The translations under genes and the position numbers were made by a program. A model generated the notes under the pieces. It ran no database searches. It was not told where the DNA came from and worked only from the letters and a program-made list of their open reading frames with translations. From assembly GCA_030550235.1 (NCBI GenBank), contig JAUQPU010000002.1, positions 231,164-295,163 of the forward strand: 64,000 nt of DNA. The letters run 5' to 3'. This stretch comes from Thermoproteota archaeon (GTDB taxonomy: Archaea; Thermoproteota; Nitrososphaeria_A; Caldarchaeales; Calditenuaceae). Positions 10,108-59,219 of this stretch are shown here, piece after piece; the stretch's first letter is position 1, and every line of letters starts with the position of its first letter.

Positions 10108-10144
10108 TTTTTAAATATTTCTCTAGTCGAAGTATCTGAACAAA

Positions 10145-26567: not shown

Positions 26568-27274
26568 GGGCACGGCTAGTCGAGACGTCTTTGATGGCTG
26601 GAATCCTCCTCACGCCCCTACTCCTAAACCTGGACTATCTAGCCCGCATCTCCCTTACACCCTTCCTAATCCTCGGATGTCTCTCCCTCCTCTCGACCTA
26701 TCTCCCAGCCAAATATCAACACCTGATAATCCCACTCATATATCTGCCAGCCATCACGAGCCTCGTAATACTTGTTCTGGAGAGGATTCCACAATATATA
26801 ATAGACCTGGCCAGCGGATACTTGATCAGCATACCGTTTATATCCATGATCGGCCTTATCAAAAGCCCCAATCTCAGAACCACTGTTATAAGCTACATCA
26901 CGAGCCTCACAAGCTCCTATCTAGTCTGGGTAATAGCGATAGAGTCTACAGAACACGGTGGACAGCTGTTCCTCTCCCTGATAAACGTGTTCATCAGCAG
27001 GGAGGCGTGGGAGAGGCCCCAACCCCCCCAGATCTTCGCGGCTCTAACCGCTTTCTCATCCATAGCACTGGTCATATACCTCTGGCGGTCTTATGGAGCT
27101 GTGTTTAGACGGGAGCAGGGAGATGCCCTCTTACTATCAGCCACAGCGGCAAGCCTCGCGGTGGCCTCGGTAGTTCTCTACTCCCTATTTTATGATGACT
27201 CGGTGGCATTGGGACTTATCATCGCGGCCTCCCTAACCCTAGCCGCTACACTGAAGGTTGGTGTATTGAAGTGA
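26564..27274 (+). CDS. polytopic membrane protein, unknown function
   Basis: Six or more hydrophobic helices. Its start overlaps the stop of the upstream gene. Confidence 0.5.
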   Translation: MRARLVETSLMAGILLTPLLLNLDYLARISLTPFLILGCLSLLSTYLPAKYQHLIIPLIYLPAITSLVILVLERIPQYIIDLASGYLISIPFISMIGLIKSPNLRTTVISYITSLTSSYLVWVIAIESTEHGGQLFLSLINVFISREAWERPQPPQIFAALTAFSSIALVIYLWRSYGAVFRREQGDALLLSATAASLAVASVVLYSLFYDDSVALGLIIAASLTLAATLKVGVLK

Positions 27275-28854
27275 ATGCGAGGGCATCTCCTGCTCTAGCC
27301 TTAGCGGTGTTGATTGTGATGGTGATTCAGCCGATGGGCCAGGCCCAGGAAGAGGGCTTTCTACTGGTGGGGTACGGTGGCGAAAAGTTTCTACCCTTTC
27401 TCGACGGAGCGAGATACAGGTTTGTTGTAGGGGAGTCGCTGGTTCTGAAAGCGATAGGCTCGGACATCTCAGTTATACTAACCACAAGTAAGGATGAGGA
27501 ACACGTCTTCCGTATAGGTGCTGGAGACTCCTTGGAGGTCCGGAGATTTGGGCCTGGCGATGTGGGGCTCATGTCCCTAGCGGTGGTGGGTGGTGGGAAG
27601 GCGGTGATAGAGGTGCTCAGCGTGGAGGAGTCGGCCCTAGGATGGATTGAGTTCCAGCCAGTGGGAACTGTATCGAATGGGTCCGGGACGCAGGAGGTGT
27701 TAGAGGCGAGGATAGTTGGGTCCACCCTCTCAGGCTTCGAGCTGAGAGGAGAGGAGGGTGAGGGCAGGAGAATATTCGTCAGGCCCAACTCTACATTACA
27801 GCTACAAATACCAGCAAACGCTCTGAACGCGAAGGTCACACTCCTCAGCCAAGACTTCATCGAGTTGAGCGGCTACACTGGTCAACTACACCTTGTTTAT
27901 AGGGTTGAGCCCGTTGTGGCTGAGTATATGTTCAACGTGACTGGAACTGGTCAGCTTGTGCGGGTTGTCGACGTTCACATCCCCGCTCTGGGTGAGGTGG
28001 GTGAGAATGGTTTGGTCCCCCTTAGGTATGGTATACTTCTTATGAGTCTAGTGTATACTGCGCGCTCAGGGGGAAGGTTTGAGCAGAATTTCGAGGTCAT
28101 GGTCTCGCCCATTATGGATGAACCACCTCCGATGAGCTCCACCGTAACCATAACTCTTGAGGAGCTTCTACGCAGCGGTTTGGAGGTAGTCACTGCAGAC
28201 CTCAGCACGGGAAGGTTCGAGCACCGGGTGGTCCGCGTACCCGACTATCGAGTCATTGTCTATGACACCTACTTTGGAAGCTGGGTTGAGGATTACTCCA
28301 TCAGCTTCACTGGATACGTCTCGCTTAGGAATGGGACCGAGTCAATAATCATCCCCAGTACGGTCTCAATCAGCGAAGAGGAATACCCCTCCAGAATCGC
28401 CATCAGACCGTCTTTCACGGTCTACTCGGTTGATATAAGCGACTCCATAGGCCCTGTTACCCTAGAAGCAGGCAGGACCGTTACTATCTATGTGGAGGGT
28501 AGGCTTGTTGATGTAGAGGTGAGGCATGCGGCCGGTTTCCTCATACAGGACTCCAGTATCTATGTTAACGACACGTTTCGCGGTGTTGGTGGCAGTTTGA
28601 GCCTCAGACTTCCGGCTGGAATATACAACTTCTCAGCTGCGACCCCGTTTGGGAAGGTTTTCTCTGCCGCCGACGTCAGGGATGTTAGGCGGGTGGTACT
28701 AGTCGTGAGGGGGTACACTGCTGAGACACTAGCACTCATAACTGTCTTTCTAATACAGCTCTCGATCTTTGCGATGTATTCTTGGAGGTGGTTGAAGTCT
28801 AGGAGGCTTAGGGGTATTTGGGGGTCGAGCGGCGAAAATCAGGCTAAGAAATAA
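27271..28854 (+). CDS. large extracellular protein with signal peptide and C-terminal TM anchor, multiple N-glycosylation sequons
   Basis: Signal LALAVLIVMVIQPMGQAQE and C-terminal TM LALITVFLIQLSIFAMY followed by a basic tail. N-x-S/T sequons are frequent. Confidence 0.5.
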   Translation: MNARASPALALAVLIVMVIQPMGQAQEEGFLLVGYGGEKFLPFLDGARYRFVVGESLVLKAIGSDISVILTTSKDEEHVFRIGAGDSLEVRRFGPGDVGLMSLAVVGGGKAVIEVLSVEESALGWIEFQPVGTVSNGSGTQEVLEARIVGSTLSGFELRGEEGEGRRIFVRPNSTLQLQIPANALNAKVTLLSQDFIELSGYTGQLHLVYRVEPVVAEYMFNVTGTGQLVRVVDVHIPALGEVGENGLVPLRYGILLMSLVYTARSGGRFEQNFEVMVSPIMDEPPPMSSTVTITLEELLRSGLEVVTADLSTGRFEHRVVRVPDYRVIVYDTYFGSWVEDYSISFTGYVSLRNGTESIIIPSTVSISEEEYPSRIAIRPSFTVYSVDISDSIGPVTLEAGRTVTIYVEGRLVDVEVRHAAGFLIQDSSIYVNDTFRGVGGSLSLRLPAGIYNFSAATPFGKVFSAADVRDVRRVVLVVRGYTAETLALITVFLIQLSIFAMYSWRWLKSRRLRGIWGSSGENQAKK

Positions 28855-28869
28855 AATACGCCAGGGCCT

Positions 28870-30300
28870 GTGAGTGATTGGCTTCTCATGCTCTCACCCT
28901 ACAGGGTTGTTCTAGACTCTTGGCAGGGCCGAGCTGCCCTCATCCTCCTCATCCTCATGGCAGCAGTCTCCCTCTACACACTTTCAAGCTATCCGCTAGA
29001 CTATGGCCCCAGGGTCTGGAACAATCCATCCCACTGGGCTGAATACCCGAAGGCCGTCCCACCGGCCTGGAGCTCCTCAGGCCTCAGCTTCCCCCACACG
29101 ATACTCGTCTTCGAAAATCCATCCTTTCTAGGTGATGGCCTAGTAGTCTATGAGAAGAGACTTCGATACGACTCGCTGGAACCTCCAAGCGGGATTACGG
29201 TGAAGATTGGGGGAGTCAGGTTCCAGTCCGCTCCACCTATAATAGAGGTATTGATGATTAGGCCCGACGGCATAGAGATTAGCCTCGCCACTGTAAGCCC
29301 GGGCGGCCCGAGGCCCGATGAGGCTCCACCCTACCTAAGGTTTGGAGACCAACCTCTGAGGGTCTTCCCCGCATCCTCCCGGAGTGTCCAGGTAATGGCT
29401 GCCCAGAGGCTCTCGCAGGTTTATGGCGCTGAGATACGCGAGGAGGATGTTTCCCAGAGGCTTGAGCAATACCTCTTCTCTAGGCCCAGCATGGAAGGCC
29501 GTCTCGAGCCCCTCAAAGGGGAGTATCTCTTCAGGCTCCTACTGTATCGTCAGGACCCGGCCGACGGTGTTGGAGAGGCCTCGATCGTTCTGGCTGGGAG
29601 TGTATACGGCTTTATGGGCACAGACACGCTTGGCCGGGACCTGGCCCAGGGGCTTCTCTTCGGCTTCCCCGTCTCCCTCTCTATAGGCCTTCTCGCGGCC
29701 GGGGTGACTACCTTCATCGGAGCCTCACTCGGACTCCTAGGCGGATACCTTGGAGGACGGGTAGACCAGCTAATCCAGAGGGCGGCAGACGTCACAGCCA
29801 ACATCCCACTCCTCCCAATCCTCATCCTCCTAGCCTACACCTTCAGGCCAGGACTAATACTCATAATACTACTCTTAACGCTCTTCAGCTGGCCGGGCCT
29901 CACAATCCTCACTCGCTCAATGGTTATCCAGCTGAGGAACTCTGCCCTGGTGGACGCTGCAAAGTCGATAGGAGCTGGATATCTCAGAATCATAGCTAGA
30001 CACATAGCGCCCAACGTGGCCCCCTATATTCTCGGACAGATGATATTGAGCATACCATCGGCGATACTTGCCGAAGCTGGGCTTAGCTTCCTAGGCCTCG
30101 GGGACCCGCAGATACCCACTTGGGGGAGTATACTCGAGCAGGCCTTCAGGACGGGGGCCGTCTTTGTGGGATACTGGTGGTGGGTGGTGCCACCGGGCCT
30201 CCTAATCGCTTTGACTTCAATATCCTTCATACTCTTGGCGCTGAGCCTAGAGCCTGCCATAAACCCGCGCTTAGCCTCGCGGCGCAGAAGAGCTGCTTGA
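28870..30300 (+). CDS. DppC/OppC-family ABC permease with ~230-aa N-terminal extracytoplasmic extension
   Basis: GTDTLGRDL motif and EAA loop DAAKSIGAGYLRIIARHIAPN. No DppA/B/D/F genes are adjacent. Confidence 0.7.
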   Translation: MSDWLLMLSPYRVVLDSWQGRAALILLILMAAVSLYTLSSYPLDYGPRVWNNPSHWAEYPKAVPPAWSSSGLSFPHTILVFENPSFLGDGLVVYEKRLRYDSLEPPSGITVKIGGVRFQSAPPIIEVLMIRPDGIEISLATVSPGGPRPDEAPPYLRFGDQPLRVFPASSRSVQVMAAQRLSQVYGAEIREEDVSQRLEQYLFSRPSMEGRLEPLKGEYLFRLLLYRQDPADGVGEASIVLAGSVYGFMGTDTLGRDLAQGLLFGFPVSLSIGLLAAGVTTFIGASLGLLGGYLGGRVDQLIQRAADVTANIPLLPILILLAYTFRPGLILIILLLTLFSWPGLTILTRSMVIQLRNSALVDAAKSIGAGYLRIIARHIAPNVAPYILGQMILSIPSAILAEAGLSFLGLGDPQIPTWGSILEQAFRTGAVFVGYWWWVVPPGLLIALTSISFILLALSLEPAINPRLASRRRRAA

Positions 30301-30304
30301 GAGA

Positions 30305-34030
<3,726 letters not shown>

Positions 34031-47613: not shown

Positions 47614-47839
47614 TCTCATAACTCAAGTCTCCTCAGCTCTGTTGCAATTATTATGCCGCGTCTCATCAAATATTACAGCAATGCTCGTGAAGTTATCTGG
47701 CACAGCAACATACAGTATGTCACGCGACACTTGATACGCTACAGGCATGCCAGGTAATTTTTGCATAAATTTTTTAATAAGTATGGGATTTTCCATGACA
47801 ATGGTCTGTCGCATATCTACGTTATGGAAGTATCGTGAC

Positions 47840-48844
47840 ATGAGGACATTAATTATAGAGAACTCACGCATACGGTTAGTTATACTATTAGATAAAGGGG
47901 CCGACATAATAGAACTGAGATATAAGCCATTGGATCTGGATCTCATGTGGCATTCACCAACCGGTTGGAGAAACCCGGTAATGGAGACCTCGCCTAACCC
48001 AAATAATATGGGAGGGTTCCTTGATTACTATGGAGGAGGATGGCAGGATATTGTGCCTTCCGCCGGTGGAGCAAGTGTAACACACAGGGGCGCAGCTCTT
48101 GGGATACATGGAGAATCTTCCATGCTTCCATGGAGCTGTGAAATTTTAGAGGACGGTGTGGAAGAAGTTTCCGCCCACCTATGGGTTGAAGGTGTCAGAT
48201 ACCCCTTTAGACTTGATAAGTGGATAGAGGTAAGACGGGATGAAGAGAAGCTCTACGTGAGGGAGAGACTCTCAAACCCTAGTAATCAGGCGCTTGAATA
48301 TTCGTGGCTTCAGCATCCCTCATTTGGGGAGCCATTCCTAGAGCCCAAATGTAAAATACGGATACCTACACCCGCAGAGGTTATAGTTTTGGAGGGGGAG
48401 CACCTCGGCAGACTCCAGCCAGGAACATATGAGTGGCCTACAGTCGCCGGAAAGGATGGCAAACCCATCGATTTGAGCATAATACCTTCCAGAGAGATTG
48501 TGGCTGAGGAGACTTCCTTCATAGCGAATATGAGAGAGGGATGGTACATACTTTCGAACCCCAAGCTAGACCTGGGGTTTGGACTCGCATGGGACATAGG
48601 TGTGTATAGGTACCTATGGTTCTGGCAGAACTACAATGCGCCTGATTATCCTTGGTATGGCACCGCATGGAATATCGCACTTGAACCTTGCACAAGCTAT
48701 CCCGGAGGCCTCCCAGCCCAGATACAGAGAAAAACGCACATAACCATCCCTCCAAAAGGGCACCTTGAGACCTCACTAACAGCATTCGTACTAAGCAACC
48801 CAGAGAAGATAGGCAAACTAGACGTCAGAGGCGAAAGCGAGTAG
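47840..48844 (+). CDS. galactose-mutarotase-fold (aldose-1-epimerase-like / DUF4432-like) protein; the ORF track starts it at 47747, but ATG at 47840 (MRTLIIEN) is more plausible
   Basis: LDLMWHSPTGW...GGGWQDIVPSAGG...HGESS...W pattern of mutarotase-like beta-sandwich enzymes. Followed by sugar oxidoreductases. Confidence 0.5.
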   Translation: MRTLIIENSRIRLVILLDKGADIIELRYKPLDLDLMWHSPTGWRNPVMETSPNPNNMGGFLDYYGGGWQDIVPSAGGASVTHRGAALGIHGESSMLPWSCEILEDGVEEVSAHLWVEGVRYPFRLDKWIEVRRDEEKLYVRERLSNPSNQALEYSWLQHPSFGEPFLEPKCKIRIPTPAEVIVLEGEHLGRLQPGTYEWPTVAGKDGKPIDLSIIPSREIVAEETSFIANMREGWYILSNPKLDLGFGLAWDIGVYRYLWFWQNYNAPDYPWYGTAWNIALEPCTSYPGGLPAQIQRKTHITIPPKGHLETSLTAFVLSNPEKIGKLDVRGESE

Positions 48845-48923
48845 CTTACATCAGTGTTCAACCCCGTATTTTAACAATATTGTGAGAACAAATATTATAT
48901 ACCGGTTTCCCAGATAGCCAGTT

Positions 48924-49955
48924 GTGGCGGCTAAAATTACTGTTGCAATATTGGGATACGGATTCATGGGCTCTACACACGCTGATGCTTGGCGCTTGAT
49001 TGATGGATGCGTTGTTAAAGGTGTTTGGGCGAGGGACAATTCAAAGACATCAAAGTTCGCATCAGAACGCGGAATCAAGGCTTATTCCTCATTTAGCGAT
49101 GTCTTGGACGACAAAGAAGTTGACGTAGTTGACATATGCACGCCAACATACACTCATGCCGAGTACGCCATACAGGCGTTGAAGTCTGGTAAGCACGTAA
49201 TAGTTGAGAAGCCCATGGCACTGAGCCTAGCAGATGCAGATAAAATGATTCATGCTGCGGATGAAAGCGGAATGAAGTTGATGGTGGCCCACGTTCTAAG
49301 GTTTTTCCCAGAATATATGAAGGTGAAGGAATTGGTAGACGAGGGTAAGCTCGGCGAGATATGCCAGGCTAGGGCTTTTAGAGGAGGCGCTTTTCCTGAA
49401 TGGAGCCCGTGGTTTGGTGAGGTTGAGAAGAGTGGGGGCGTGGCCGTTGATACTGCAATACACGATGTGGACTACATAACTTGGATTAGCTCAGGCATCC
49501 CCCAACGAGTATACGCAAAGATTAGGCGCGGAGCTAAAGAAGCCTCAGCTAAATATGAAATCGCCTTCATAAACGTGAGATATAAGAATGGAATGATAGC
49601 CTTCATTGAGGCAAGCTGGGCGCATCCACCCTCATTCCCCTTCACGATGAAGCTAGAGCTGGACGGCACCGAAGGAACGGTAACATTGGACAACCAGTCC
49701 CCAGTCCCTATCTCGCTATTCTCGCGAACTATAAGGCAAGGATATGCACCAGAGTCTCTACCTTGGAAGCCTATGGTGCATCCATTCCCGCTTGACCCAT
49801 TCTACCGCGAGCTATCACATTTTGTAGACTGCGTTAGAAACGACAAGACACCAATGACAGACGGGAGAGCGTCGCGGAGAAGCTTGGAGGTGTGCCTCGC
49901 GAGCGTGAAATCTGCAGAGACAGGTAGGCCAGTTGAGCTACCATTCGTGGGGTGA
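48924..49955 (+). CDS. Gfo/Idh/MocA-family NAD(P)-dependent oxidoreductase (paralog 1)
   Basis: N-terminal Rossmann ILGYGFMGSTHA and the EKP motif (VIVEKPMA). Confidence 0.8.
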   Translation: MAAKITVAILGYGFMGSTHADAWRLIDGCVVKGVWARDNSKTSKFASERGIKAYSSFSDVLDDKEVDVVDICTPTYTHAEYAIQALKSGKHVIVEKPMALSLADADKMIHAADESGMKLMVAHVLRFFPEYMKVKELVDEGKLGEICQARAFRGGAFPEWSPWFGEVEKSGGVAVDTAIHDVDYITWISSGIPQRVYAKIRRGAKEASAKYEIAFINVRYKNGMIAFIEASWAHPPSFPFTMKLELDGTEGTVTLDNQSPVPISLFSRTIRQGYAPESLPWKPMVHPFPLDPFYRELSHFVDCVRNDKTPMTDGRASRRSLEVCLASVKSAETGRPVELPFVG

Positions 49956-50967
49956 GGAAATGGGCAGCCTATTTAAAGTTGGATTTTTAGGGGTAGCGCA
50001 TTTCCACGCTGACAGCTACGCGAGAGCACTTAGAAAACTGCCAGACACTGAGATAGTAGGTGCCTTTGATGACGACACATCCCTTGGTAAGAAATTCTGT
50101 GAGGACTTCAAGACAGAATACTACAGAAGCGCCTCGCAGCTACTCGATAAAGAATTGGATGCAGTCATAATAACATCTGAGAACTTTAAACACTATGAAT
50201 GCATAATACAGGCCTTGGATAAGGGCTTAAACATTCTGTGCGAAAAACCCATGACCACAAATCTGCGCGACGCTGAAGATGTAGTGGCTCGGGTAGAGAA
50301 ACAGAAGGTTGTGTTTCAGATGTGCTATGTCATGAGATATCATACAGTATCCTCGCTTGTAAAAGAGCTCATAGACTCGGGGGGCGTTGGAAAGCTGATC
50401 TCACTAGTTGGCACGAATAAGCTTAACAGGTCTCTACCCCTGCTTAGGAGGTGGTTTACTGACCCAAGACTATCTGGGGGCGGCGCTGTGATGGACCACA
50501 CAGTCCATCTAGCTGACCTGATGAGATGGTATACGGGCGATGAGGTGGATGAAGTCTATACCGAGATAGGGAAAAAAGTGAATAACAGCCTCATGGTGGA
50601 GGACAACTTCTTCACAACTATTCGTTTTAGGGGGGATGTGATAGGACACATTGACGGGAGTTGGACATATGCCTCAGGCCTCTATACGTGGGGTGACGTG
50701 AGGATGGAGATTGTGGGTACCGACGGCGCCTTATTCATGGACGCTTTTCGGCAAAACGTGTACTATATAGGAGACAGGCAGCCAAACGATAAATTATCCT
50801 GGAGCTACTATGGGTGCGATCCTGACCTAGCAATGATAACGGATTTTAAGAAGTGTGTACAGGAGAATAAACAGCCCAGAGCAACTGTAAAAGACGGCTA
50901 CGAGGGCGTTAGGATCTCACTCGCCAGCTATGAATCCAGCAGACGCGGGGCCCCTGTAAAGCCTTAA
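49933..50967 (+). CDS. Gfo/Idh/MocA-family oxidoreductase (paralog 2)
   Basis: VGFLGVAHFHADSYA Rossmann and ILCEKPMT. Confidence 0.8.
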   Translation: MSYHSWGEEMGSLFKVGFLGVAHFHADSYARALRKLPDTEIVGAFDDDTSLGKKFCEDFKTEYYRSASQLLDKELDAVIITSENFKHYECIIQALDKGLNILCEKPMTTNLRDAEDVVARVEKQKVVFQMCYVMRYHTVSSLVKELIDSGGVGKLISLVGTNKLNRSLPLLRRWFTDPRLSGGGAVMDHTVHLADLMRWYTGDEVDEVYTEIGKKVNNSLMVEDNFFTTIRFRGDVIGHIDGSWTYASGLYTWGDVRMEIVGTDGALFMDAFRQNVYYIGDRQPNDKLSWSYYGCDPDLAMITDFKKCVQENKQPRATVKDGYEGVRISLASYESSRRGAPVKP

Positions 50968-51025
50968 CTAGGCTCAAAAACCCTAACGAATGAGACAATA
51001 GACGTTCCCCAGCCTAGCCCCATGG

Positions 51026-51790
51026 CTATTTTGTTACGCGACTTATCTCTTCCGTAAGTGCGTTCACGAATAAGTTGAAAAGTTTCTCTCCCTTCTCCCT
51101 ACTTGCGAGTGTAGCATCTCCACATACGCCCGTCTTAAAATCACGACCAAGGAATCTCGAAGTAGTCAATATTCTAATGGCCTCGTTAAAGTTAGCAGTG
51201 GTCATGCCGCGGGGGATGAAATCCGGCACCTCCTTGACAGCCTTGCTCATATCCACTAGGTCAGGCCTCAGGAAGAGCATTAAACTCGTCTCCAACTCCT
51301 CCGCATGTATGAATATCTCCTCCTCAAGAATAGATGATAGAGTCTCCATACTAACTACCGTATATGGTGAGATATTATGTACTGTCATGCCGTGTAGATC
51401 ATGTGATGTATTAAGCCACTGTGTAACTGCAAACAAGTGGTAGATATGCCCAGCGTGCCCGGAAACAAGCACGAGGTGTTTAACACCATATTTTGAGACG
51501 CCCACCGCTATATCTCTGACCAATCTAACCAATGTTGATGGTCTAAGTGATATTGTACCCACCATTGGCAAATGGTCGTCTGAATAACCATAAGGTATGA
51601 GTGGTAAGACAGCAGCGTTTATCCTCTTAGCAACTTCCTTACAAAGCTCCCAAGCTATTATATGGTCAGTTCCGAGGGGTAGGTGTGGACCATGTTGCTC
51701 AGTACTACCAATGGGAAGCAAAGCAACCTTAGTCTGCTTGGTCAGCTCTGATAACTGCGTTGTAGATTTTTCAGCCCATAGCAGGGTCAT
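51026..51790 (-). CDS. creatininase-family amidohydrolase
   Basis: LLPIGSTEQHGPHLPLGTD and VLVSGHAGH metal-binding motifs. Length 254 aa. Confidence 0.75.
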   Translation of the reverse strand: MTLLWAEKSTTQLSELTKQTKVALLPIGSTEQHGPHLPLGTDHIIAWELCKEVAKRINAAVLPLIPYGYSDDHLPMVGTISLRPSTLVRLVRDIAVGVSKYGVKHLVLVSGHAGHIYHLFAVTQWLNTSHDLHGMTVHNISPYTVVSMETLSSILEEEIFIHAEELETSLMLFLRPDLVDMSKAVKEVPDFIPRGMTTANFNEAIRILTTSRFLGRDFKTGVCGDATLASREKGEKLFNLFVNALTEEISRVTK

Positions 51791-51918
51791 GCCTCTATCA
51801 AGCGTGCGAGTTATTTAAAAATTTTAGAAACATTGAAAGAAGAGCTCCATATCGCTCTTATTACCAACTTTGGCTAAATTTTTAAATACACCTCACTGAC
51901 CACACTTTTTGACGATAT

Positions 51919-53013
51919 ATGTCACGAAAATTGGGTGTATTAGTTCACGGCGCGGGCTGGGTCTCTACACAGCACATAGAAGCATATAAAAACAATCCAC
52001 ATACACGAGTAGTGGCTATCTCGAGTAGAAGGCTAGAGAGTGCTAGAAAGAGAGCAGAGGAGGCGGGTCTTCACGACGTCAAACTATATGACGATTATCA
52101 TAAGGCACTTGAAAATCCTGATGTTGATATAGTGTCTATTTGTACTCCCCAGCATCTCCATGCTCAAAACACCATAGATGCCGCAAAAGCCGGTAAGCAT
52201 ATGTTGATTGAGAAGCCGATAGCCAACTCGGTGGAGGAGATGAAAGCAATGAGAGATGCGGTCCGTAAAGCTAAAGTGAAGACGGTGGTTAGCTTTGTTT
52301 TAAGATGGAACCCATTATTTGAGGCGATAAAGATTCTGATATCGAGTGGATTCTTGGGGAAGATATACTACGTAGAAACCGACTATCAGAGTGCTATTGC
52401 TGCGTGGTGGTCTGGATATGAAGATGCACGAAAGAAAGAAACGGGGGTGAGCGCGTTCCTAGTTGGCGGCTGTCATGCCATAGATGCTATGAGGTGGTTT
52501 GCTAGTGAGGAGAGGTATGGAGCAGCAAAACCTATCGAGGTTTTCGCATACTCAGGAGGGCTTAGAAAAGGGAAGATAAGACAATGGAACTACTATAAAC
52601 AGAGATGGGAGGATATGCCACCCCTCGAATATGATGACCTGGAGGTCGCATTAGTAAAGTTCGATAATGGTGTTATTGGTAAAGTCTCGGTCAACTTCGG
52701 CGGTGTCCAACCGTACACATTCCCAATCGAGATATTTGGCGATCACGGCACTATAAAGGATAACAGGCTATGGTCAGCGAAGTTTGAGGGCAACCAGAAG
52801 GGGTGGATAACAATCCCCACAATATTGCCAGATAGCGCCGAGGTGACCCATCATCCATTCCAGCAAGAAATCGACCACTTTGTAGACTGCATCCTGAACG
52901 ATAGGGAGTCTCACTGTAATCTGGAGGACGCCATCAGAACGCATGAGGTAGCATTTGCGGCCCTTAAATGTTATGAGACTGGGAGGCCAGTTAGGCTGCC
53001 GCTGCTTGAGTAA
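51919..53013 (+). CDS. Gfo/Idh/MocA-family oxidoreductase (paralog 3)
   Basis: LVHGAGWVSTQH Rossmann and LIEKPIA. Confidence 0.8.
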   Translation: MSRKLGVLVHGAGWVSTQHIEAYKNNPHTRVVAISSRRLESARKRAEEAGLHDVKLYDDYHKALENPDVDIVSICTPQHLHAQNTIDAAKAGKHMLIEKPIANSVEEMKAMRDAVRKAKVKTVVSFVLRWNPLFEAIKILISSGFLGKIYYVETDYQSAIAAWWSGYEDARKKETGVSAFLVGGCHAIDAMRWFASEERYGAAKPIEVFAYSGGLRKGKIRQWNYYKQRWEDMPPLEYDDLEVALVKFDNGVIGKVSVNFGGVQPYTFPIEIFGDHGTIKDNRLWSAKFEGNQKGWITIPTILPDSAEVTHHPFQQEIDHFVDCILNDRESHCNLEDAIRTHEVAFAALKCYETGRPVRLPLLE

Positions 53014-53052
53014 ATATTTATATGATGTGAAAAGATAGCAAGTGTTGCAACT

Positions 53053-54144
53053 ATGGCTAAGCTTGAACTTGTCGGCCTCTATAAGAGATTTGGCGCTCAG
53101 GAGGCAGTTAAGAACCTCACACTAGTTGTTGAAGATGGGAAGATGGCTTGTCTACTAGGCCCCTCGGGCTGTGGGAAGACCACCACTTTAAGAATGGTGG
53201 CTGGCCTCGAGAAGCCTGATTCTGGAGACATCTACATCGGGGGTAAGAGAGTTAACGACCTCCCCCCATACGAGCGCAACATATCCATGGTATTCCAATT
53301 CTATGCTATCTATCCTGGAATGACAGTTTATGATAACCTGGCATTCCCCCTGAAGCAGAAAAAGATCCCGAAGGATGAGATAGATAGGCGTGTGAAAGAG
53401 ATTGCAGAAATATTGAGGATTAACCATATTCTAAAGGAGGATGCGATAAGGCTGCCTGCCGGAGAAAAACAGAGAATCGCTCTGGGAAGGGCCCTGATCA
53501 AGGAGCCTGAAATACTCCTACTTGACGAGCCTTTAACGAACCTTGATGCGCGGCTTAGGGCCGTTATGCGTAAAGAAATTAAGAGATTGCACCTCAAGCT
53601 GAAGACCACCACCTTATACGTCACCCACGACCAAATCGAGGCGATGACTATGGCGGACGTGATAGGAGTGATGAATCTAGGAGTATTGCAGCAATATGGT
53701 CCACCGCACGAGCTATATAACAAGCCCGCCAACATGTTTGTCGCAGGTTTCTTGGGAACCCCTCCTATGAACTTTCTGGACTTCTCCTATATAGTAAATG
53801 GAAAGAAATATTTTGATTTTGGCGAATTCAAGATCACGGACCCAGAGCTGTTAAACATGCTCCCATCTACGCTTGAGTCAAACGAGCTAGTACTAGGGAT
53901 AAGGCCTAAAGATGTCATAATCAGTTTTAACACTGAAGAATCCGACTCATACGGCTGGGAGATAAAGGTTGTGGAGCCTGTCGGGGACAAATATATCGTC
54001 TTTATGAGTCTTGGAGATAAATCCATAAGAGTGGTGGTCCCGGCGATAGAGCGGGGAATCGAAGTGGGAAAGAAGGTGGGCATAAGATTCAGGAAGGAGA
54101 CCATCCACATATTCGACAGGAAGACGGGAAATGCTATATTATAG
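53053..54144 (+). CDS. sugar ABC transporter ATP-binding protein (MalK/UgpC-type with C-terminal TOBE domain), NBD 1
   Basis: Walker A GPSGCGKTT, Walker B LLLDEPLTNLD, H-loop YVTHDQ. The signature is degenerate (LPAGEKQR in place of LSGGQ). Confidence 0.85.
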   Translation: MAKLELVGLYKRFGAQEAVKNLTLVVEDGKMACLLGPSGCGKTTTLRMVAGLEKPDSGDIYIGGKRVNDLPPYERNISMVFQFYAIYPGMTVYDNLAFPLKQKKIPKDEIDRRVKEIAEILRINHILKEDAIRLPAGEKQRIALGRALIKEPEILLLDEPLTNLDARLRAVMRKEIKRLHLKLKTTTLYVTHDQIEAMTMADVIGVMNLGVLQQYGPPHELYNKPANMFVAGFLGTPPMNFLDFSYIVNGKKYFDFGEFKITDPELLNMLPSTLESNELVLGIRPKDVIISFNTEESDSYGWEIKVVEPVGDKYIVFMSLGDKSIRVVVPAIERGIEVGKKVGIRFRKETIHIFDRKTGNAIL

Positions 54145-54165
54145 AATGATAGAGGGTATGGCGTT

Positions 54166-55254
54166 ATGGTAAGTGTCAGGTTGGAAAACGTCACTAAAAT
54201 AGTAGGGGGTAGACCGCTAGTTGACGACCTAACGCTCGACATAAAATCGGGTGAGCTCGTCGCCCTTTTCGGACCGCCGGGCTCAGGCAAGACTACAGTC
54301 CTTAGATTAATAGCTGGACTTGACACAGTCACTAGTGGAAAAATCTACATTGATGAACAGCTGGTCAACGATCTCAGCCCTGCCAGGAGGGAGGTGGGGA
54401 TGGTTTTCCAGAGCTTTGCATTATACCCTACCTACACGGTTTTCGACAACTTGGCATTCCCTCTAAGAAAGAAAGGGCTATCCCAGTCAGAGATAAAGAA
54501 TAGGGTAGAGGGTGTAGCTCAAAAGCTTGGCATAAGTCACCTACTGCAGAAGAAGCCTGCATTTCTAAGTGGCGGAGAGAAGCAGAGAGTTGCTATTGGT
54601 CGCGCGATAGTAAAGGAGCCGAAAGTCCTTCTAATGGATGAGCCCTTAACAAATCTTGACGCTAAGTTAAGGATACTAGTTAGGACCGAGATTAGAAGGC
54701 TTCAGCAGGAGCTTGGAATAACAACGATAGTAAGCACACCAGATGATCAAGAGGCACTATCTATAGCTGATAAGATAGCAGTCATGCGTCAAGGTAAGCT
54801 CATACAATACGCTGACACGCCCACAATCTATAATAAACCCTCGCACCTCTTCGTAGCCCAGAACATCGGGACCCCCCAGATAAACATAATTGAGGCAAAG
54901 TTGCTGACAGATGGTCAAACACCCCTTCTTGACCTAAAATTCACAAAGGTCAGAATACCTGAGAGTAGTCTAAACCTGAAGGAATATGTTGGAAAAGACG
55001 TTCTCGTCGGATTGAGACCGAGCGAGATAAGAGTGAGTAAGAATCCCTTGGGAGTCGAGCAGGTTAAGGTTAGAGTAGAGTTTATAGAACCTCTGGGGGC
55101 CGAATCTATTGTAACCCTATCAGCTGGGGAAGAGAGCTTAACAGCTGTAGTTCCCCCTGGCACACCCTTAGAGATTGGAGAAGAAGCCTATATGGAACTT
55201 GAAGGTGCTACTTTACACGTCTTCGACAAAGAGTCGGGCTTAGCCATAGTCTAG
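54166..55254 (+). CDS. second MalK-type ABC ATP-binding protein, NBD 2, with degenerate H-loop
   Basis: Walker A GPPGSGKTT, signature LSGGEKQR, Walker B LLMDEPLTNLD. The H-loop position reads VSTPDDQ, lacking the histidine. Confidence 0.8.
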   Translation: MVSVRLENVTKIVGGRPLVDDLTLDIKSGELVALFGPPGSGKTTVLRLIAGLDTVTSGKIYIDEQLVNDLSPARREVGMVFQSFALYPTYTVFDNLAFPLRKKGLSQSEIKNRVEGVAQKLGISHLLQKKPAFLSGGEKQRVAIGRAIVKEPKVLLMDEPLTNLDAKLRILVRTEIRRLQQELGITTIVSTPDDQEALSIADKIAVMRQGKLIQYADTPTIYNKPSHLFVAQNIGTPQINIIEAKLLTDGQTPLLDLKFTKVRIPESSLNLKEYVGKDVLVGLRPSEIRVSKNPLGVEQVKVRVEFIEPLGAESIVTLSAGEESLTAVVPPGTPLEIGEEAYMELEGATLHVFDKESGLAIV

Positions 55255-55297
55255 ACTCAAAAAATTATTAGATAAATTTATGGTTTTAGATGCTGTA

Positions 55298-56188
55298 TTA
55301 CTTTACCGCCCCAGCTACCAATCCGCTTATGAGGTATCTACGGAATATGGCGATCACGACTAGCGCGGGTAGCATTGCCACGACGCCACCCGCCATCAAT
55401 ATTCCTACGGGCTTGTATGGCTGGGCGGCCATGAAGCCGACGATTACAGGCATAGTCCTTGAGAGCTGCGTCTGAGTCACCATAAAGGCGAAGAAGAACT
55501 CACCCCAAGAGACCATAAACGATATAATACCGACCGCGACGATTCCAGGAGTGATAACAGGCAAAACAACTCTAAACAACGTCTCAAAACGCCCATATCC
55601 ATCAACTCTAGCAGCATCCTCAATATCAGCAGGGACAGTACTCAGATATGTGTTCAATATCCATATGTTTAATGGAATAGTGAAGGCGGCGTGAACCAGT
55701 ATGACAGCGATAAGAGTATCGTAGAGCTTTAAACCGAAGAAGTTTTGTATTATAATATAGTAAGGTACCACGATTGCAACCGGAGGAATTAGACGACCAG
55801 CAATAGACATGTAGAAGAGGAGTTGGCTTCCGGGGAACCGTATCCTGGTGTATGCATATGATGCGAGTGTTGCTGCAAACACGTTTATCGCTATAACCAC
55901 GAGGCCTATTATCACACTATTCGCTAAAGCGTTTGGAAACCATCTCGCAACGGCGGGTAGGAAGGTGAGCCTACCGCTCTCTTGTAATCTAGCTTCAATT
56001 GCACTGCTTGTATCGAATATGAACCAGTAATTGAAGTAGACGGGATTGTGGGGGATAATTGTAGGTGGCGCTGAATGTATCTCAGGCTCCGACTGCAGAC
56101 TTAAGTCAAGCATCCAAAGTATCGGCAATAATACCCAGCAGGCAACGACTATCGAGGCGAGCAGGATGCCGATTTTCTTTCTATCCAT
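55298..56188 (-). CDS. carbohydrate ABC transporter permease (MalG/UgpE-like)
   Basis: Six TM helices and EAA-type loop DIEDAARVDGYGRFETLFRVVLP. Confidence 0.8.
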   Translation of the reverse strand: MDRKKIGILLASIVVACWVLLPILWMLDLSLQSEPEIHSAPPTIIPHNPVYFNYWFIFDTSSAIEARLQESGRLTFLPAVARWFPNALANSVIIGLVVIAINVFAATLASYAYTRIRFPGSQLLFYMSIAGRLIPPVAIVVPYYIIIQNFFGLKLYDTLIAVILVHAAFTIPLNIWILNTYLSTVPADIEDAARVDGYGRFETLFRVVLPVITPGIVAVGIISFMVSWGEFFFAFMVTQTQLSRTMPVIVGFMAAQPYKPVGILMAGGVVAMLPALVVIAIFRRYLISGLVAGAVK

Positions 56189-56205
56189 AACTTTGAATCA
56201 CCCCC

Positions 56206-57093
56206 CTAAGCCCTCAGCCTCAACCTACCTATCCTCAGCGCCCTGAAATAGGCTATAATCAGCCCTATACTCACAAGAACGACCATAAACGATAATGCAG
56301 AGGCCCTGCCGAAGTTTAGGAATGTGAACATCTCGCTGAACGTGTAATATGATATCACCGCTGTGAAGTTTCCAGGACCACCTGCGGTAATTACATACAC
56401 TATATCGAATGTCCAGAGGGCCATTAGGGTGGTATAAACCGCCACGATGAGCATGAACGGTTTAAGCCAGGTGAATGTTATCGACTTAAACCTTGACCAT
56501 TCCCTTGCACCATCTATTAATGCGGCTTCGTAGAGCTCCTGAGGAATTGACTGTATACCAGCTAGGAAGAGGAGCGTGGGTAGCGGCAGCTGAACCCAGA
56601 GAAACGCCAATACTAGGATCAGCATCGCAGGCCACTTTAGGCTGAGCCACGGTATGTAGGAGTCGATAACGCCTAGCCCCTTTAATGCGGCGTTGAAGAT
56701 TCCGTAGTTTGCGTCGAAAATCCACTTCCACACGGCTGAACTTACAACTAGTGGTATTGCCCATGGGACTAGGACTAGCCATTGCAGGAATCCTACGCCT
56801 CTAAACTTCTGGGAAAGGAGGAGAGCTAAGCCAAGCGAGATTAATACTGTTAAAGGAACAGATATCACTGCGAAGATGACTGTAGCTAGTACAGAGTCGG
56901 TAAAGTAATAGGAATTGATGACTTGGATGAAGTTGTCGAAGCCTATGAATCTTATCTCTTCAGGATACTTCAGGTCATACCTCTGTGTACTAACATAAAT
57001 TGCATAGCCTATTGGGTAGAATGTAAACGGTAGGACAAATAAGAGTGAGGGTATTAGCGCTAAAATAATAAATCGTATGTCTTCTTTAAGCAA
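56206..57093 (-). CDS. carbohydrate ABC transporter permease (MalF/UgpA-like)
   Basis: EAA loop YEAALIDGAREWSRFKSITFTWLKP. Six TM helices. Confidence 0.8.
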   Translation of the reverse strand: MLKEDIRFIILALIPSLLFVLPFTFYPIGYAIYVSTQRYDLKYPEEIRFIGFDNFIQVINSYYFTDSVLATVIFAVISVPLTVLISLGLALLLSQKFRGVGFLQWLVLVPWAIPLVVSSAVWKWIFDANYGIFNAALKGLGVIDSYIPWLSLKWPAMLILVLAFLWVQLPLPTLLFLAGIQSIPQELYEAALIDGAREWSRFKSITFTWLKPFMLIVAVYTTLMALWTFDIVYVITAGGPGNFTAVISYYTFSEMFTFLNFGRASALSFMVVLVSIGLIIAYFRALRIGRLRLRA

Positions 57094-57119
57094 GCCAGTC
57101 CACCAGGGCTACTCTAAGG

Positions 57120-58724
57120 CTATTTGCCGGTCTTCGACTCTCGCTTCATCCTATTCCATTCTTCAGCCAACCTGTTGAGAACCGCTAAGATGTCATCATC
57201 ACTCAGTCCCCTGTTGCCTAGTATCAGGTCGTGAATTAGTGGCCTCGCAACTCCTGCCTGCCAGTATCCCCACCATTCAGACCACCATGTGGTCATTCTC
57301 GGATCGTTGAAGAAGTCGTATCCCTTAAACAGCACTTGCCTTTTAACCTCTGGATCAACCCAGCTCTTGACCGACTCTCTTATATCGGCGTATTTTGGAT
57401 CCTCCCACATGCTTATATATATTGGGCCTACCCCCTTCTCATTATTTAGTCGTCTACAGACGAAGTACTCGCCGTTTTCAAAGTCTGGCCTCCCATTTTT
57501 AGTCCTACCGCCTACGAATTGCAGTACGCGCCAAGTAGCCTCGAGGGTGTTTCGGCCTTGCTCTAGAGTCTTCCTAGAGACTTGGTAAGTTCTGTAGATT
57601 GTTGAGACGCGGCCGCTGCCGGGTGCCACAGCCATTCTGAGGTTCCCCGCCTCTTTTGAGGGTGGTGTATTAGCAAATGCTAGGTCATAGTCTGGCATCC
57701 AGAAGAATGTGTGGGCGCCTGAGCCAAAGGCGTTAACGGCCTGTGCCTCGTCGTATAGGACGCCCTTGGTTGAGGCTAGCTTCTCCTTGTGTATCATGTC
57801 GAGCTGCCATCTGAGGCTCTGGAACCAGGGAGACTTCTTGTCGTTGAAGATGGGGTTCAAATCCTCATCCCACATGAACGGGCCTTCCTGATCAGTCATA
57901 CCTAGCATGAAGCAGTATGTGCCCACCTCCACAAATCCCCAGCTGCCATACCATATTCCGATTGGGTCGTCATTCACTCCCTTCTGTTTGATTAGTCTAG
58001 CCTGCTCCTCTAGGTCCTCCCAAGTCTTCGGCGGCTCGTCGATTCCAGCCTCCTGTAGATGTCTCGCATTATACATGAAGGCTTGTGCTCCGCCATAATA
58101 GAACAGGCCAGTTACCTTTCCAGTGTCTGGGTTAATGAGACCTTTTCTGAACCCTGGGAATACGTCGTCTAGGTATCTCCTAATCTCTGGGAAGTAATCT
58201 TCCATATCGATGAGCCATCCGTTCTGTTGGTAGATGTATGTGACGTCTGGTGTGCTATAGTGAATGTTGGGTGGGTTGCCTGCAGTGTATGCTGCGCTGA
58301 GCCCTGAGAAGAATGTGTCCAGCCCATAGTCAACTACTTGTAGGTCTATGTCTGGATTATATTGATTAAATATTCTGGCGTTGTCTTGAACTAGCTCTAC
58401 ACCCCAGCTCCATATGCCCCACGTCACAGGTACCTTCTGGCCTACTGGTCCCGTGGTTGTTTGTGCGGTAGTTGTTACTTGTTGGGTAACGGTCTGCGTC
58501 ACTACCCTTGTCACTGTCTGGGGCGTTTGTTGCGCGCCTGAAGACCCGGCCAGATATCCGCCAACAGCGCCGATTACGACTCCTGCCGCGACACCAACAG
58601 CCAGTTTCCCAGCAGATGAGAGGGCTGCACGCCTTGTCACGGTCTTATCTAGTGGATTTCGCAAAAGCACATCTTTTTCATCCTCTTTATGGGGTTTGGT
58701 TTTGGACTTCCTAGTACCTGGCAT
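57120..58724 (-). CDS. extracellular sugar-binding protein (family 1 SBP) with N-terminal TM anchor and Thr-rich linker
   Basis: Anchor LAVGVAAGVVIGAVGGYLAG, a TVTRVVTQTVTQQVTTTAQTTTGP linker, then a ~440-aa SBP-like domain rich in W/Y. Confidence 0.7.
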   Translation of the reverse strand: MPGTRKSKTKPHKEDEKDVLLRNPLDKTVTRRAALSSAGKLAVGVAAGVVIGAVGGYLAGSSGAQQTPQTVTRVVTQTVTQQVTTTAQTTTGPVGQKVPVTWGIWSWGVELVQDNARIFNQYNPDIDLQVVDYGLDTFFSGLSAAYTAGNPPNIHYSTPDVTYIYQQNGWLIDMEDYFPEIRRYLDDVFPGFRKGLINPDTGKVTGLFYYGGAQAFMYNARHLQEAGIDEPPKTWEDLEEQARLIKQKGVNDDPIGIWYGSWGFVEVGTYCFMLGMTDQEGPFMWDEDLNPIFNDKKSPWFQSLRWQLDMIHKEKLASTKGVLYDEAQAVNAFGSGAHTFFWMPDYDLAFANTPPSKEAGNLRMAVAPGSGRVSTIYRTYQVSRKTLEQGRNTLEATWRVLQFVGGRTKNGRPDFENGEYFVCRRLNNEKGVGPIYISMWEDPKYADIRESVKSWVDPEVKRQVLFKGYDFFNDPRMTTWWSEWWGYWQAGVARPLIHDLILGNRGLSDDDILAVLNRLAEEWNRMKRESKTGK

Positions 58725-58748: not shown

Positions 58749-58756
58749 CTTATAAA
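58749..58756 (-). promoter_or_regulatory. TATA box for the sugar ABC operon (SBP-permease-permease)
   Basis: The minus-strand sequence TTTATAAG lies about 27-34 nt upstream of the SBP ATG. A further ATATATAT sits upstream. Confidence 0.35.
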
Positions 58757-59108
58757 TTTTTTAGATATATATCACCCGGCCGACAAAAACTGATAATCTG
58801 ATTGTAGGCGACTATCCATAAACGACGATCTCCACAGGTTAAGTTATAGCCGGTGAGATGTAATCTCGAGCTTGCAGTTCAATCGTCTTAAAATCGGTTT
58901 CCATAACCTCAAAAACCTGTAGAGATTATATAATTTTTAAATAAAATTAAATGTTATAGTGAACTATGTATTACCCACGTGTAATCATATGGATCCAGGG
59001 ACCCTTTTAGCTATCAGTCTAACCGATTTTTAGAGACATAGTGAAATGGCCTCCGAGTCTGTATGTTTTAAGGCAACATCGACTATTCACAATTTACTAG
59101 TAAATTAG

Positions 59109-59219
59109 TGCGGGGGGTGGGATTTGAACCCACGAACCCCTACGGGACAGGGGCTCCCATCTCATTATATTTTGGAGATCCTGAGCCCTGCGCCTTTGAC
59201 CAGGCTTGGCGACCCCCGC
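59109..59219 (-). tRNA. tRNA-Leu(CAG) with an intron in the anticodon loop region; CCA is not encoded
   Basis: The reverse complement gives the acceptor stem GCGGGGG/CCCCCGC with discriminator A, a D-arm GCCAAGCCTGGTCAAAGGC, an anticodon stem CAGGG/CCCTG with loop CTCAGGA (anticodon CAG), a ~26-nt insertion (TCTCCAAAATATAATGAGATGGGAGC), a long variable arm CCCGTAGGGG, and a T-arm GTGGGTTCAAATCCCAC. Confidence 0.85.

Follow-up and report, generated by a model that had tools for sequence, protein, structure and literature searches.

A conserved archaeal gene island may link sugar oxidation to a creatininase-fold hydrolase

What would a creatininase-family hydrolase do among the sugar genes of an uncultured, thermophilic hot-spring archaeon? 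We addressed this question for an ~11-kb block at positions 47795-58724 of the window, by which we mean the whole 64,000-nt stretch of Thermoproteota archaeon DNA analyzed here; all coordinates without a locus name are positions in it. The block encodes a DUF4432 protein, three Gfo/Idh/MocA dehydrogenases designated GfoA, GfoB and GfoC, a creatininase-family hydrolase, and the two ATPases, two permeases and binding protein of an ATP-binding cassette (ABC) importer (Table 1). The five enzyme genes of the original prediction are all present where it placed them, as judged by open reading frame (ORF) calls and Pfam. Its 47840-53013 stretch also holds, as part of an island that extends past 53013 to include the ABC genes up to 58724. 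No island gene has a housekeeping assignment in Pfam or NCBIfam, and every island enzyme stays under the cut-offs of the curated functional families, among them those for creatininase, IolN, MftE, IolG and levoglucosan dehydrogenase. From the conserved gene neighborhoods, the island is very probably a single carbohydrate-utilization module rather than a chance neighborhood. We give an even chance to the further proposal that its creatininase-fold hydrolase attacks a carbonyl derived from a sugar (an aldonolactone or a beta-diketone) in a previously undescribed archaeal oxidative pathway.

We compared gene neighborhoods on other contigs, referred to as loci L###. One-to-one orthologues of the island genes recur together in different gene orders in other archaeal contigs, which argues that they form one functional module. 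Loci L010, L007, L096, L097, L009 and L177 each contain orthologues of the three Gfo dehydrogenases together with the hydrolase, joined by DUF4432 in the first four and by ABC genes in the first five, and GfoC lies beside the GfoA-GfoB pair at all loci with the trio around hydrolase-clade members. L010 has the gene order of the window. In L007 (archaeon HR01) the hydrolase and DUF4432 genes are divergently transcribed, and 5 kb separates the hydrolase gene from the Gfo trio and the ATPases; in L096 the hydrolase/DUF4432 pair lies on the opposite side of the transporter, and L097 shows yet another order. In L009 and L177, which represent a more distant lineage group, the hydrolase gene is located directly downstream of an AP_endonuc_2 gene on the same strand (with a gap of 10 nt in L177), and the Gfo trio is 4-5 kb away. 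This co-localization, rearranged, in other archaeal lineages bears out the earlier proposal that the genes act as one carbohydrate-type catabolic island.

Since the hydrolase gene lies on the opposite strand and has its own promoter, we considered whether it merely sits within the cluster and works outside the sugar pathway. Three loci with clade members (L008, L093 and L094) do lack a Gfo gene within 10 kb, and L095 ends at a contig edge, so the link between hydrolase and Gfo genes is strong, not universal. Yet the hydrolase gene is kept beside the Gfo trio or DUF4432 through at least four gene orders in two distant lineage groups. The Gfo association is also specific to the clade. As a negative control we used 79 of the 80 loci retrieved by a profile scan with the hydrolase clade, which hold distant bacterial family members (the pattern TEQHGPHL proved generic), and only 3 of these 79 generic loci have any Gfo gene within 10 kb. 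We therefore regard a bystander hydrolase as very improbable.

Strand changes and intergenic TATA-like elements indicate that the island comprises four or five transcription units instead of one operon: DUF4432, possibly with read-through into GfoA-GfoB; the hydrolase alone; GfoC with the two ATPases; and the binding protein with the two permeases. The original prediction named separate, unrelated transcription units with known housekeeping roles as the finding that would speak against it. The units do appear to be separate, but none of their genes has an assigned housekeeping role, and the separation does not overturn the functional link.

The hydrolase is a clear member of PF02633 (222 bits against a cut-off of 31.3, E 1e-65, residues 7-248). 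Its top PDB sequence match (E 3e-21) is the creatinine amidohydrolase CrnA of Pseudomonas putida (1j2t, 1q3k), which has the same fold and belongs to the same family. Across 28 sequences aligned with 1q3k, residues E31, H33, D42, H112, H162 and E167 are invariant. They match what we take to be the metal ligands and catalytic His of the P. putida enzyme, Glu34, His36, Asp45, His120, His178 and Glu183; with its metal ligands intact, the hydrolase appears catalytically competent. In contrast, the position of Glu122 in the HYE motif, presumably a substrate-site residue of P. putida creatininase, is aligned with Gly114 (motif SGHAGH) across the whole clade. The setting differs as well: no creatinase or sarcosine oxidase genes are found nearby, and the genomic partners are sugar enzymes. 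On the curated models the hydrolase scores 128.4 bits for creatininase (TIGR04448, cut-off 235), 111.4 for MftE (TIGR03964, cut-off 172), 88.3 for IolN (NF041098, cut-off 245) and 20.7 for ArfB (NF033501, cut-off 180), and its orthologues P0006 and P0031 reach 122 and 135 on the creatininase model. An MftE role was rejected on its score and for want of a radical-SAM MftC or MftA context beside the gene, and an ArfB role on score and context. The clade itself is archaeal and sharply bounded, its members being more than 46% identical to the hydrolase before identity falls to 40% or less; those with names come from Nitrososphaerota, archaeon HR01, Bathyarchaeia and Hodarchaeota. Two clade paralogues lie in tandem in L094 (295-2115), beside EamA and M20 peptidase genes.

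In all members of this hydrolase family known to us, a metal-activated water attacks a carbonyl carbon. The substrates are a cyclic amide, a formamide, a peptide or, for IolN, a beta-diketone. The general logic of oxidation followed by hydrolysis is well supported for the island because dehydrogenases would make such carbonyls, namely lactones from aldoses and ketones from cyclitols.

The DUF4432 protein exceeds the cut-off of PF14486 (72.5 bits against 32.5, E 3e-20). Its start is most likely at 47795 and not at 47840 as originally annotated, because the segment R.S..W.Y..MRTL upstream of 47840 is conserved in homologues and a TATA-like element lies ~15 nt upstream. A PDB search with the sequence gave no meaningful match. 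The AlphaFold model is confident, with a predicted local distance difference test score (pLDDT) of 93.5, and its top Foldseek matches are 3k25, 3ty1 (putative aldose 1-epimerase) and 3nre (YphB), with E-values of 1e-13 to 4e-15, and the galactose mutarotase GalM (1l7k, E 1e-9). The model thus confirms a galactose-mutarotase fold, in agreement with the aldose-epimerase-like assignment made beforehand. Residues H90, E92, H159 and E282 are invariant in 39 homologues. By motif mapping, H90, H159 and E282 lie in GalM-like contexts (GIHGE, LQHPSFG and ALEPCT). We take the catalytic His/His/Glu of GalM to be H96, H170 and E304 of the Lactococcus lactis enzyme. GalM and the structural-genomics DUF4432 proteins (3ty1, KPN_04629) share the fold with the window protein, whose conserved His/His/Glu set probably falls at the catalytic motif positions of GalM; sequence identity is just 11-15%. 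Orthologues in L007, L010, L096 and L097 are 59-79% identical. More distant homologues head or join sugar operons with isomerase and transaldolase genes, such as a bacterial LacI-ABC-isomerase-transaldolase operon headed by the DUF4432 gene in L092, and in L176 a DUF4432 gene forms a divergent pair with a 68%-identical GfoC. A literature search on DUF4432 gave only incidental mentions, and no member is known to have a published function. Of the suggested "oxidation and isomerisation of an unusual sugar or cyclitol", oxidation was pitched at the right level; isomerization fares less well, as DUF4432 looks like a mutarotase that interconverts anomers and not like an isomerase.

GfoA, GfoB and GfoC all exceed the gathering scores for the N-terminal Rossmann and C-terminal alpha/beta domains (PF01408 with PF02894/PF22725). 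All three have the EKP motif, together with GG-x3-D-x3-H in GfoA and GfoB and the variant GGCHAIDAMRW in GfoC. Cross-matches give pairwise identities of just 20-29%, confirming that they are distinct paralogs, as had been proposed. IolG (TIGR04380) is the top NCBIfam model for all three, at 181.4 bits for GfoA, 137.6 for GfoB and 142.9 for GfoC against a cut-off of 355. The best scores of any of the three on other models are 110 against 650 for levoglucosan dehydrogenase, 46 against 650 for the glycoside 3-dehydrogenases, 179 against 450 for archaeal UDP-GlcNAc 3-dehydrogenase and 86 against 350 for Gfo6 xylose dehydrogenase.

GfoC is 83-92% identical to its orthologues in L007 and L010 and 62-64% to those in L009 and L177. 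Its top PDB sequence relatives are the aldose-aldose oxidoreductase 5a02, DgpA, GFOR and levoglucosan dehydrogenase, and its substrate domain searched alone has no detectable sequence relative in the PDB. Among the highest template modeling scores (TM-scores, 0.80-0.82) to the AlphaFold model (pLDDT 89.6) are those of Paracoccus LgdA, a scyllo-inositol/L-glucose dehydrogenase, and levoglucosan dehydrogenase, which represent a Gfo subfamily of ~370-390 aa and oxidize pyranose or cyclitol rings. Identity to them is 23%, and GfoC has motifs of its own, GGCHAIDAxRW and PTILPDSAxVTHHPFQ, the latter including THHPFQ. GfoC-like proteins of 65-73% identity occur in thousands of metagenome contigs from archaea and several bacterial phyla, some labeled Poribacteria, Armatimonadetes or unclassified bacteria; GfoC is a member of a very widespread family without a characterized member. 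Outside the archaeal cluster, no conserved gene neighbor of GfoC homologues was found in 76 loci (L100-L175); the apparent top neighbor family proved to be an antisense shadow ORF of GfoC itself.

Tentatively, and somewhat short of an even chance, we favor an oxidative, non-phosphorylative route by which the module burns an imported aldose via a mutarotase, a C-1 dehydrogenase, lactone opening by the creatininase-fold enzyme and further dehydrogenase steps. The CUT1-type importer, made up of the binding protein, two permeases and a heterodimer of two MalK-like ATPases, would bring in the sugar, and the DUF4432 mutarotase would equilibrate its anomers. GfoC would then oxidize the anomeric carbon to an aldonolactone, and the hydrolase would open the lactone ring with metal-activated water attacking a cyclic carbonyl, the same chemistry that creatininase uses on creatinine. 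The coupled GfoA/GfoB pair could carry out more oxidation and reduction, e.g. keto-acid formation or aldonate epimerization, with cleavage to pyruvate and an aldehyde left to enzymes encoded elsewhere.

We favor this aldose-to-lactone route for several reasons. A mutarotase makes sense only for a free reducing sugar, and DUF4432 accompanies the hydrolase in four related loci and GfoC in L176. A free aldose is also suggested by the solved relatives of GfoC, which include the C-1-oxidizing aldose-aldose oxidoreductase and GFOR. Moreover, an LLM oxidoreductase of the F420-dependent glucose-6-phosphate dehydrogenase family (TIGR03557, 199 against 210 bits), whose namesake enzyme makes a lactone, adjoins the hydrolase in relatives. 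Its gene neighbors that of the hydrolase in L009 and L177, in L007 it flanks the DUF4432 gene that adjoins the hydrolase gene, and a fragment is found ~10 kb from the hydrolase at the contig edge in L095; these orthologues are 62-77% identical. Finally, between hydrolase and Gfo trio the module of L007 adjoins a glyceraldehyde dehydrogenase alpha subunit (NF041018, 783.7 against 790 bits) and an RraA-like pyruvate aldolase, and homologues (66% and ~81% identical) occupy the same position in L097. These two enzymes could represent the end steps of a non-phosphorylative Entner-Doudoroff-type route. Known non-phosphorylative aldose routes (archaeal Entner-Doudoroff and Weimberg-type; bacterial L-fucose and L-galactose, with mutarotase, sugar 1-dehydrogenase and a metal-dependent lactonase) share this logic, in which a mutarotase is followed by an NAD(P)-dependent aldose dehydrogenase and a metal hydrolase that attacks a cyclic carbonyl.

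A number of observations weigh against this route. The lactonases we know of have amidohydrolase, SMP30 or metallo-beta-lactamase folds, and we are aware of no creatininase-fold lactonase. Our literature search for IolN and for a creatininase with lactonase, mutarotase or inosose returned nothing relevant. In comparison with the known routes, the 64-kb window contains no sugar-acid dehydratase or aldolase and has two extra dehydrogenases; three dehydrogenases exceed the needs of a simple dehydrogenase-lactonase route, and the role given to GfoA/GfoB is tentative. The accessory genes that lend support elsewhere are absent from the lineage of the window, where a search for the M19-like hydrolase, ornithine cyclodeaminase (OCD)-family protein, RraA-like aldolase, Mo-dependent glyceraldehyde dehydrogenase, aldehyde dehydrogenase and LLM oxidoreductase found none. 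As for GfoC, its relatives include C-3 oxidizers (DgpA and levoglucosan dehydrogenase) and inositol dehydrogenases, and in the fold search with its model C-1 oxidizers, C-3 oxidizers and inositol dehydrogenases score alike. Among characterized enzymes, GfoA and GfoB are nearest to the Thermotoga maritima inositol dehydrogenase TM0414. In addition, the neighbors of the hydrolase elsewhere include many enzymes of nitrogen metabolism (M19-like hydrolase, aminotransferases, Amidohydro_3 and a pyridoxal phosphate (PLP) enzyme), which would suit an amide substrate.

The relatives of GfoA and GfoB bring in the strongest competitor of the aldose route. The top PDB sequence matches of GfoA are 8w9s (2.5e-37), for which a literature search gave nothing relevant, and 3ezy, which is TM_0414 (3.6e-31); those of GfoB are 3ezy (3.8e-22) and the myo-inositol 2-dehydrogenase 3cea. 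In a Thermotoga-like inositol route, the ABC system would import inositol and two Gfo enzymes would oxidize it to inosose and then diketo-inositol. The hydrolase would cleave a C-C bond of this beta-diketone like IolN, giving a keto-aldonate, and the third Gfo enzyme and DUF4432 (in place of the epimerase IolO) would process the product. We consider such a route rather unlikely, but it has real attractions. It accounts for multiple dehydrogenases, and inositol derivatives are common as solutes of thermophiles. IolN is the only known carbohydrate-pathway function of the hydrolase family, and the match to its model, though sub-threshold, is significant (88 bits, E 5e-25). TM_0414 is the best solved relative of GfoB and the second-best of GfoA, and the top NCBIfam rank of IolG for all three Gfo proteins points the same way. 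The AP_endonuc_2 gene that immediately precedes the hydrolase gene in L009 and L177 belongs to the IolO family, with a weak IolO score (40 against 300), and a DUF4432 homologue lies near a myo-inositol-1-phosphate synthase gene in L090. Inositol clusters typically hold several Gfo paralogues and a CUT1 transporter (PMC9603128; Rodionova 2013, cited in PMC3750489).

The myo-inositol cluster of T. maritima (Rodionova et al. 2013, cited in PMC3750489 and PMC12632266) comprises IolG TM0414, IolM, IolN TM0413, IolO and InoEFGK. Shared with the island are the thermophilic host, the CUT1-type importer and genes for a Gfo/Idh/MocA dehydrogenase and a creatininase-family hydrolase. In contrast to it, the island has no equivalents of IolO, IolK or IolR in the window, adds a mutarotase-fold protein, contains three Gfo genes and resides in an archaeon. 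In the comparison with iol clusters suggested at the outset, families are shared, with 3ezy near GfoA and GfoB, but the island proteins fall short of the cut-offs of IolN (88 against 245) and IolG. All three Gfo proteins stay far under the latter (181, 138 and 143 against 355 bits). The hydrolase, the clade members (72-83 bits for those other than the window protein) and the outgroups (85-101) are likewise far under the IolN cut-off, and for the hydrolase, the tested clade members and the outgroups alike the IolN score is below the scores for creatininase or MftE. No AP_endonuc_2 gene is present in the window. A mutarotase would have no role on a cyclitol, whereas DUF4432 keeps mutarotase-like residues and pairs with GfoC elsewhere. 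One earlier judgement is nonetheless weakened by IolN, namely that the amidohydrolase fits poorly into standard routes: the creatininase-family model NF041098 represents IolN, the 3-dehydro-scyllo-inosose hydrolase of the T. maritima inositol pathway, which also uses the Gfo/Idh/MocA protein TM0414 (3ezy), even though the window hydrolase itself fails this model.

The sugar could also be substituted with nitrogen, with the hydrolase as a true amidohydrolase (deacylase, lactamase or glycosyl-amine/Amadori cleaver) and the Gfo enzymes oxidizing or reducing the sugar part. Most known activities of the family are indeed amide hydrolyses, on creatinine, a formamide (ArfB) or a peptide (MftE), and the genes around clade members would fit. 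These include an M19-like hydrolase (L007, L095, L096 and L097), class-III aminotransferases (L009 and L095), Amidohydro_3 of the D-aminoacylase type (L009, L177 and, beside GfoC/DUF4432, L176), a PIG-L deacetylase (L009), an M20 protein (L094) and a cysteine-synthase-like PLP enzyme (L008). The best model of the AP_endonuc_2 neighbor is fructoselysine 3-epimerase, far under its cut-off, and the second-best PDB match of the binding protein is a chitin-oligosaccharide binder. However, the nitrogen-related neighbors vary by lineage and could be unrelated, the island in the window has no aminotransferase, deaminase or deacetylase, and the residue we presume to be Glu122 in creatininase is Gly in the entire clade. 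We judge a nitrogen-substituted substrate unlikely. The idea of glucosamine oxidation was dropped after a check against PMC9007349, which describes a different pathway.

The importer bears on the nature of the substrate as well. It contains SBP_bac_1, two BPD_transp_1 permeases and a MalK-type ATPase with a TOBE/OB domain, as expected of a CUT1-type system. The GlcV, GlcT and GlcU models are among the best NCBIfam matches of the transporter proteins, with scores short of their cut-offs (GlcV 311 and 315 against 450; GlcU 90 against 340; GlcT 85 against 360). Archaeal CUT1 systems such as GlcSTUV import monosaccharides, a point in favor of the aldose route. The two ATPases are ~40-44% identical in cross-matches, and the pair is conserved in L007, L010 and L096-L099; two distinct ATPase genes for one importer imply a heterodimeric ATPase, which would be unusual for this transporter class. 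The binding protein has only distant PDB relatives, MalE3 (6dtq, 7e-9), the chitin-oligosaccharide binder NagB2 and a trehalose/maltose-binding protein. Its N-terminus (VTRVVTQTVTQQVTTTAQTTTG) consists of a lysine-rich segment, a twin-arginine-like TRRAAL, one hydrophobic helix and a Thr/Gln-rich linker, an arrangement that looks typical of membrane-anchored archaeal binding proteins.

Di- or oligosaccharides are the usual ligands of CUT1 binding proteins, and the protein of the island has its best PDB relatives among binders of maltose, trehalose and chitobiose. This would agree with a 3-keto-glycoside route, in which GfoC, as a DgpA- or levoglucosan dehydrogenase-like enzyme, oxidizes C-3 of an imported glycoside or disaccharide, and the hydrolase frees the aglycone, leaving GfoA/GfoB to reduce the 3-keto-sugar and the mutarotase to handle the freed sugar. 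GfoC and GfoA both have DgpA and levoglucosan dehydrogenase among their closest relatives, and the island has no glycoside hydrolase by Pfam. To our knowledge, however, the known routes of this kind use xylose-isomerase-like lyases or DUF1080 hydrolases and not a creatininase fold, and the scores on the glycoside 3-dehydrogenase and levoglucosan dehydrogenase models lie far under the cut-offs. A ketolactose hydrolase for such a route is described in PMC9007349. On balance, we find the 3-keto-glycoside route quite improbable and retain the aldose-to-lactone route as the preferred one.

Oxidative clusters for sugar or cyclitol breakdown that include an ABC importer are a known kind of system, and the iol cluster of T. 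maritima resembles the island in part. Not described before are the specific subfamilies, the conserved set of three dehydrogenases, the archaeal host and the occurrence of a creatininase-fold hydrolase together with a DUF4432 mutarotase. If the hydrolase acts as proposed, it would provide the second carbohydrate-directed activity of the creatininase family after IolN and the first in Archaea, adding lactone or C-C hydrolysis in sugar breakdown to the family. DUF4432, as a pathway-specific mutarotase, and the widespread GfoC family would each gain a first function. Confirmation would also define a route of carbohydrate oxidation in Nitrososphaerota and Caldarchaeales-like heterotrophs of hot springs, for which carbon sources have been deduced mostly from genomes. 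The island is one of many uncharacterized sugar clusters and has no bearing on a long-standing open question; as the module is small and its parts look soluble or standard, reconstitution in vitro is feasible.

Table 1 Genes and promoter elements of the island and the adjacent tRNA gene
Feature	Position	Strand	Size	Details
Promoter element of the DUF4432 gene	47766-47780	+		AT-rich, TATA/B recognition element (BRE)-like; TAAATTTTTTAATAA; ~15 nt before ATG 47795
DUF4432 protein	47795-48844	+	349 aa	PF14486; longest ORF from 47747
TATA-like element of GfoA	~25 nt upstream of the GfoA gene			ATATTATATA; GfoA thus also has its own TATA-like element
GfoA	48924-49955	+	343 aa	PF01408, PF22725, PF02894; canonical GYGFMG, EKP, D-x3-H
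GfoB	49960-50967	+	335 aa	Pfam; longest ORF from 49933, 344 aa
Creatininase-family binuclear-metal hydrolase	51026-51790	-	254 aa	PF02633; own promoter; strand opposite to neighbors
Divergent promoter region hydrolase/GfoC	51791-51918			AT-rich elements 51811-51826 (-) and 51875-51889 (+)
GfoC	51919-53013	+	364 aa	Pfam; first gene of the GfoC-ATPase-ATPase unit
ABC ATPase 1 (MalK/UgpC/GlcV-like)	53053-54144	+		OB_MalK, TOBE_2; UgpC subfamily 386/432 bits, GlcV 311/450 bits
ABC ATPase 2 (MalK/UgpC/GlcV-like)	54166-55254	+		Paralogue of ATPase 1
ABC permease (MalG/GlcU-like)	55298-56188	-		PF00528; under GlcU and MalG cut-offs
ABC permease (UgpA/GlcT/MalF-like)	56206-57093	-		PF00528, NCBIfam
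CUT1-type substrate-binding protein	57120-58724	-	534 aa	PF01547, E 6e-18
Promoter element of the binding-protein gene	58753-58767			AT-rich; 28 nt upstream; second copy 58929-58943
tRNA gene	59109-59219	-	111 nt	Rfam covariance model 43.9 bits; missed by ARAGORN

Within the GfoA-GfoB pair, the start of GfoB is most likely ATG 49960, because this codon lies 4 nt past the GfoA stop with GGTGAGG upstream; public annotations of metagenome-assembled genomes (MAGs) give either 335 or 344 aa. GfoB is probably translationally coupled to GfoA, whose orthologues (44-75% identical) are without exception directly upstream of GfoB. In all GfoB orthologues (L007, L009, L010, L096, L097 and L099), G(V/L)(A/G)HFH replaces the GxGxxG dinucleotide-binding loop, and cofactor binding by GfoB may be atypical.

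A recurrent AT-rich element, TAAATTTTTWAAWTA, is found 15-29 nt before start codons at 47766, 51811, 51875, 58753 and 58929, and also at 10104 and 60888. The 15-nt element, with up to two mismatches, is restricted within the window to the four promoter regions of the island, which raised the idea of a shared operator or regulon. We rejected this idea, as the pattern was built from the same sites, a probe from one single site also matches two unrelated promoters in the window, and the element is not kept verbatim in L010, the 84%-identical relative. No inverted repeat is common to the island promoter regions. TAAATTTTTWAAWTA is probably the promoter (BRE/TATA) consensus of the organism rather than a specific operator, and its placement suggests leaderless or short-leader transcripts. 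In the divergent hydrolase/GfoC region each element lies 21-29 nt ahead of its start codon, a spacing that would likewise fit leaderless or short-leader archaeal transcripts.

The relatives of the module carry further genes of their own. In the Caldarchaeales-like relatives (L007 7808-15835; L096 1201-2945 and 11759-12961; L097 1276-7881; L095 1-15499), the hydrolase and DUF4432 genes stand among genes for an M19-like (renal-dipeptidase-family) hydrolase, a near-threshold Mo-dependent glyceraldehyde dehydrogenase alpha subunit, an aldehyde dehydrogenase, an OCD-family protein, an RraA-like aldolase and a class-III aminotransferase. L009 (9082-14902) and L177 (895-6573) share a fixed gene set beside the Gfo trio and an EamA transporter: AP_endonuc_2, the hydrolase, a 360-416-aa protein without a Pfam match (74% identical), the F420_G6P-family LLM oxidoreductase and Amidohydro_3.

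The island is bordered by housekeeping genes on both sides, with histidine biosynthesis genes, a radical-SAM gene and a MoaA-like gene on the left and a tRNA, a ThiF/rhodanese gene, ThiS and a primase on the right. The tRNA gene evidently bears an intron, which supports an archaeal origin of the window. G+C content is 0.472 over the island (47747-58724) against 0.517 in the rest of the window, the lowest among its 11-kb stretches. This is a weak hint at a separate origin; another low-GC stretch lies at ~4-12 kb. On NCBI MAG contigs an identical hydrolase is found with the same gene order around it, and the island proteins are labeled Nitrososphaerota archaeon. The nearest separate relative is a Thermoproteota archaeon MAG, isolate JZ-3, with an 84%-identical hydrolase. 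Elsewhere in the window, series of sizeable ORFs without a Pfam match occupy 3851-11287 and 25263-31045. A gene for a MoxR-type AAA ATPase (24309-25262) precedes the second series, in which one ORF encodes a 476-aa protein bearing a BPD_transp_1 permease domain.

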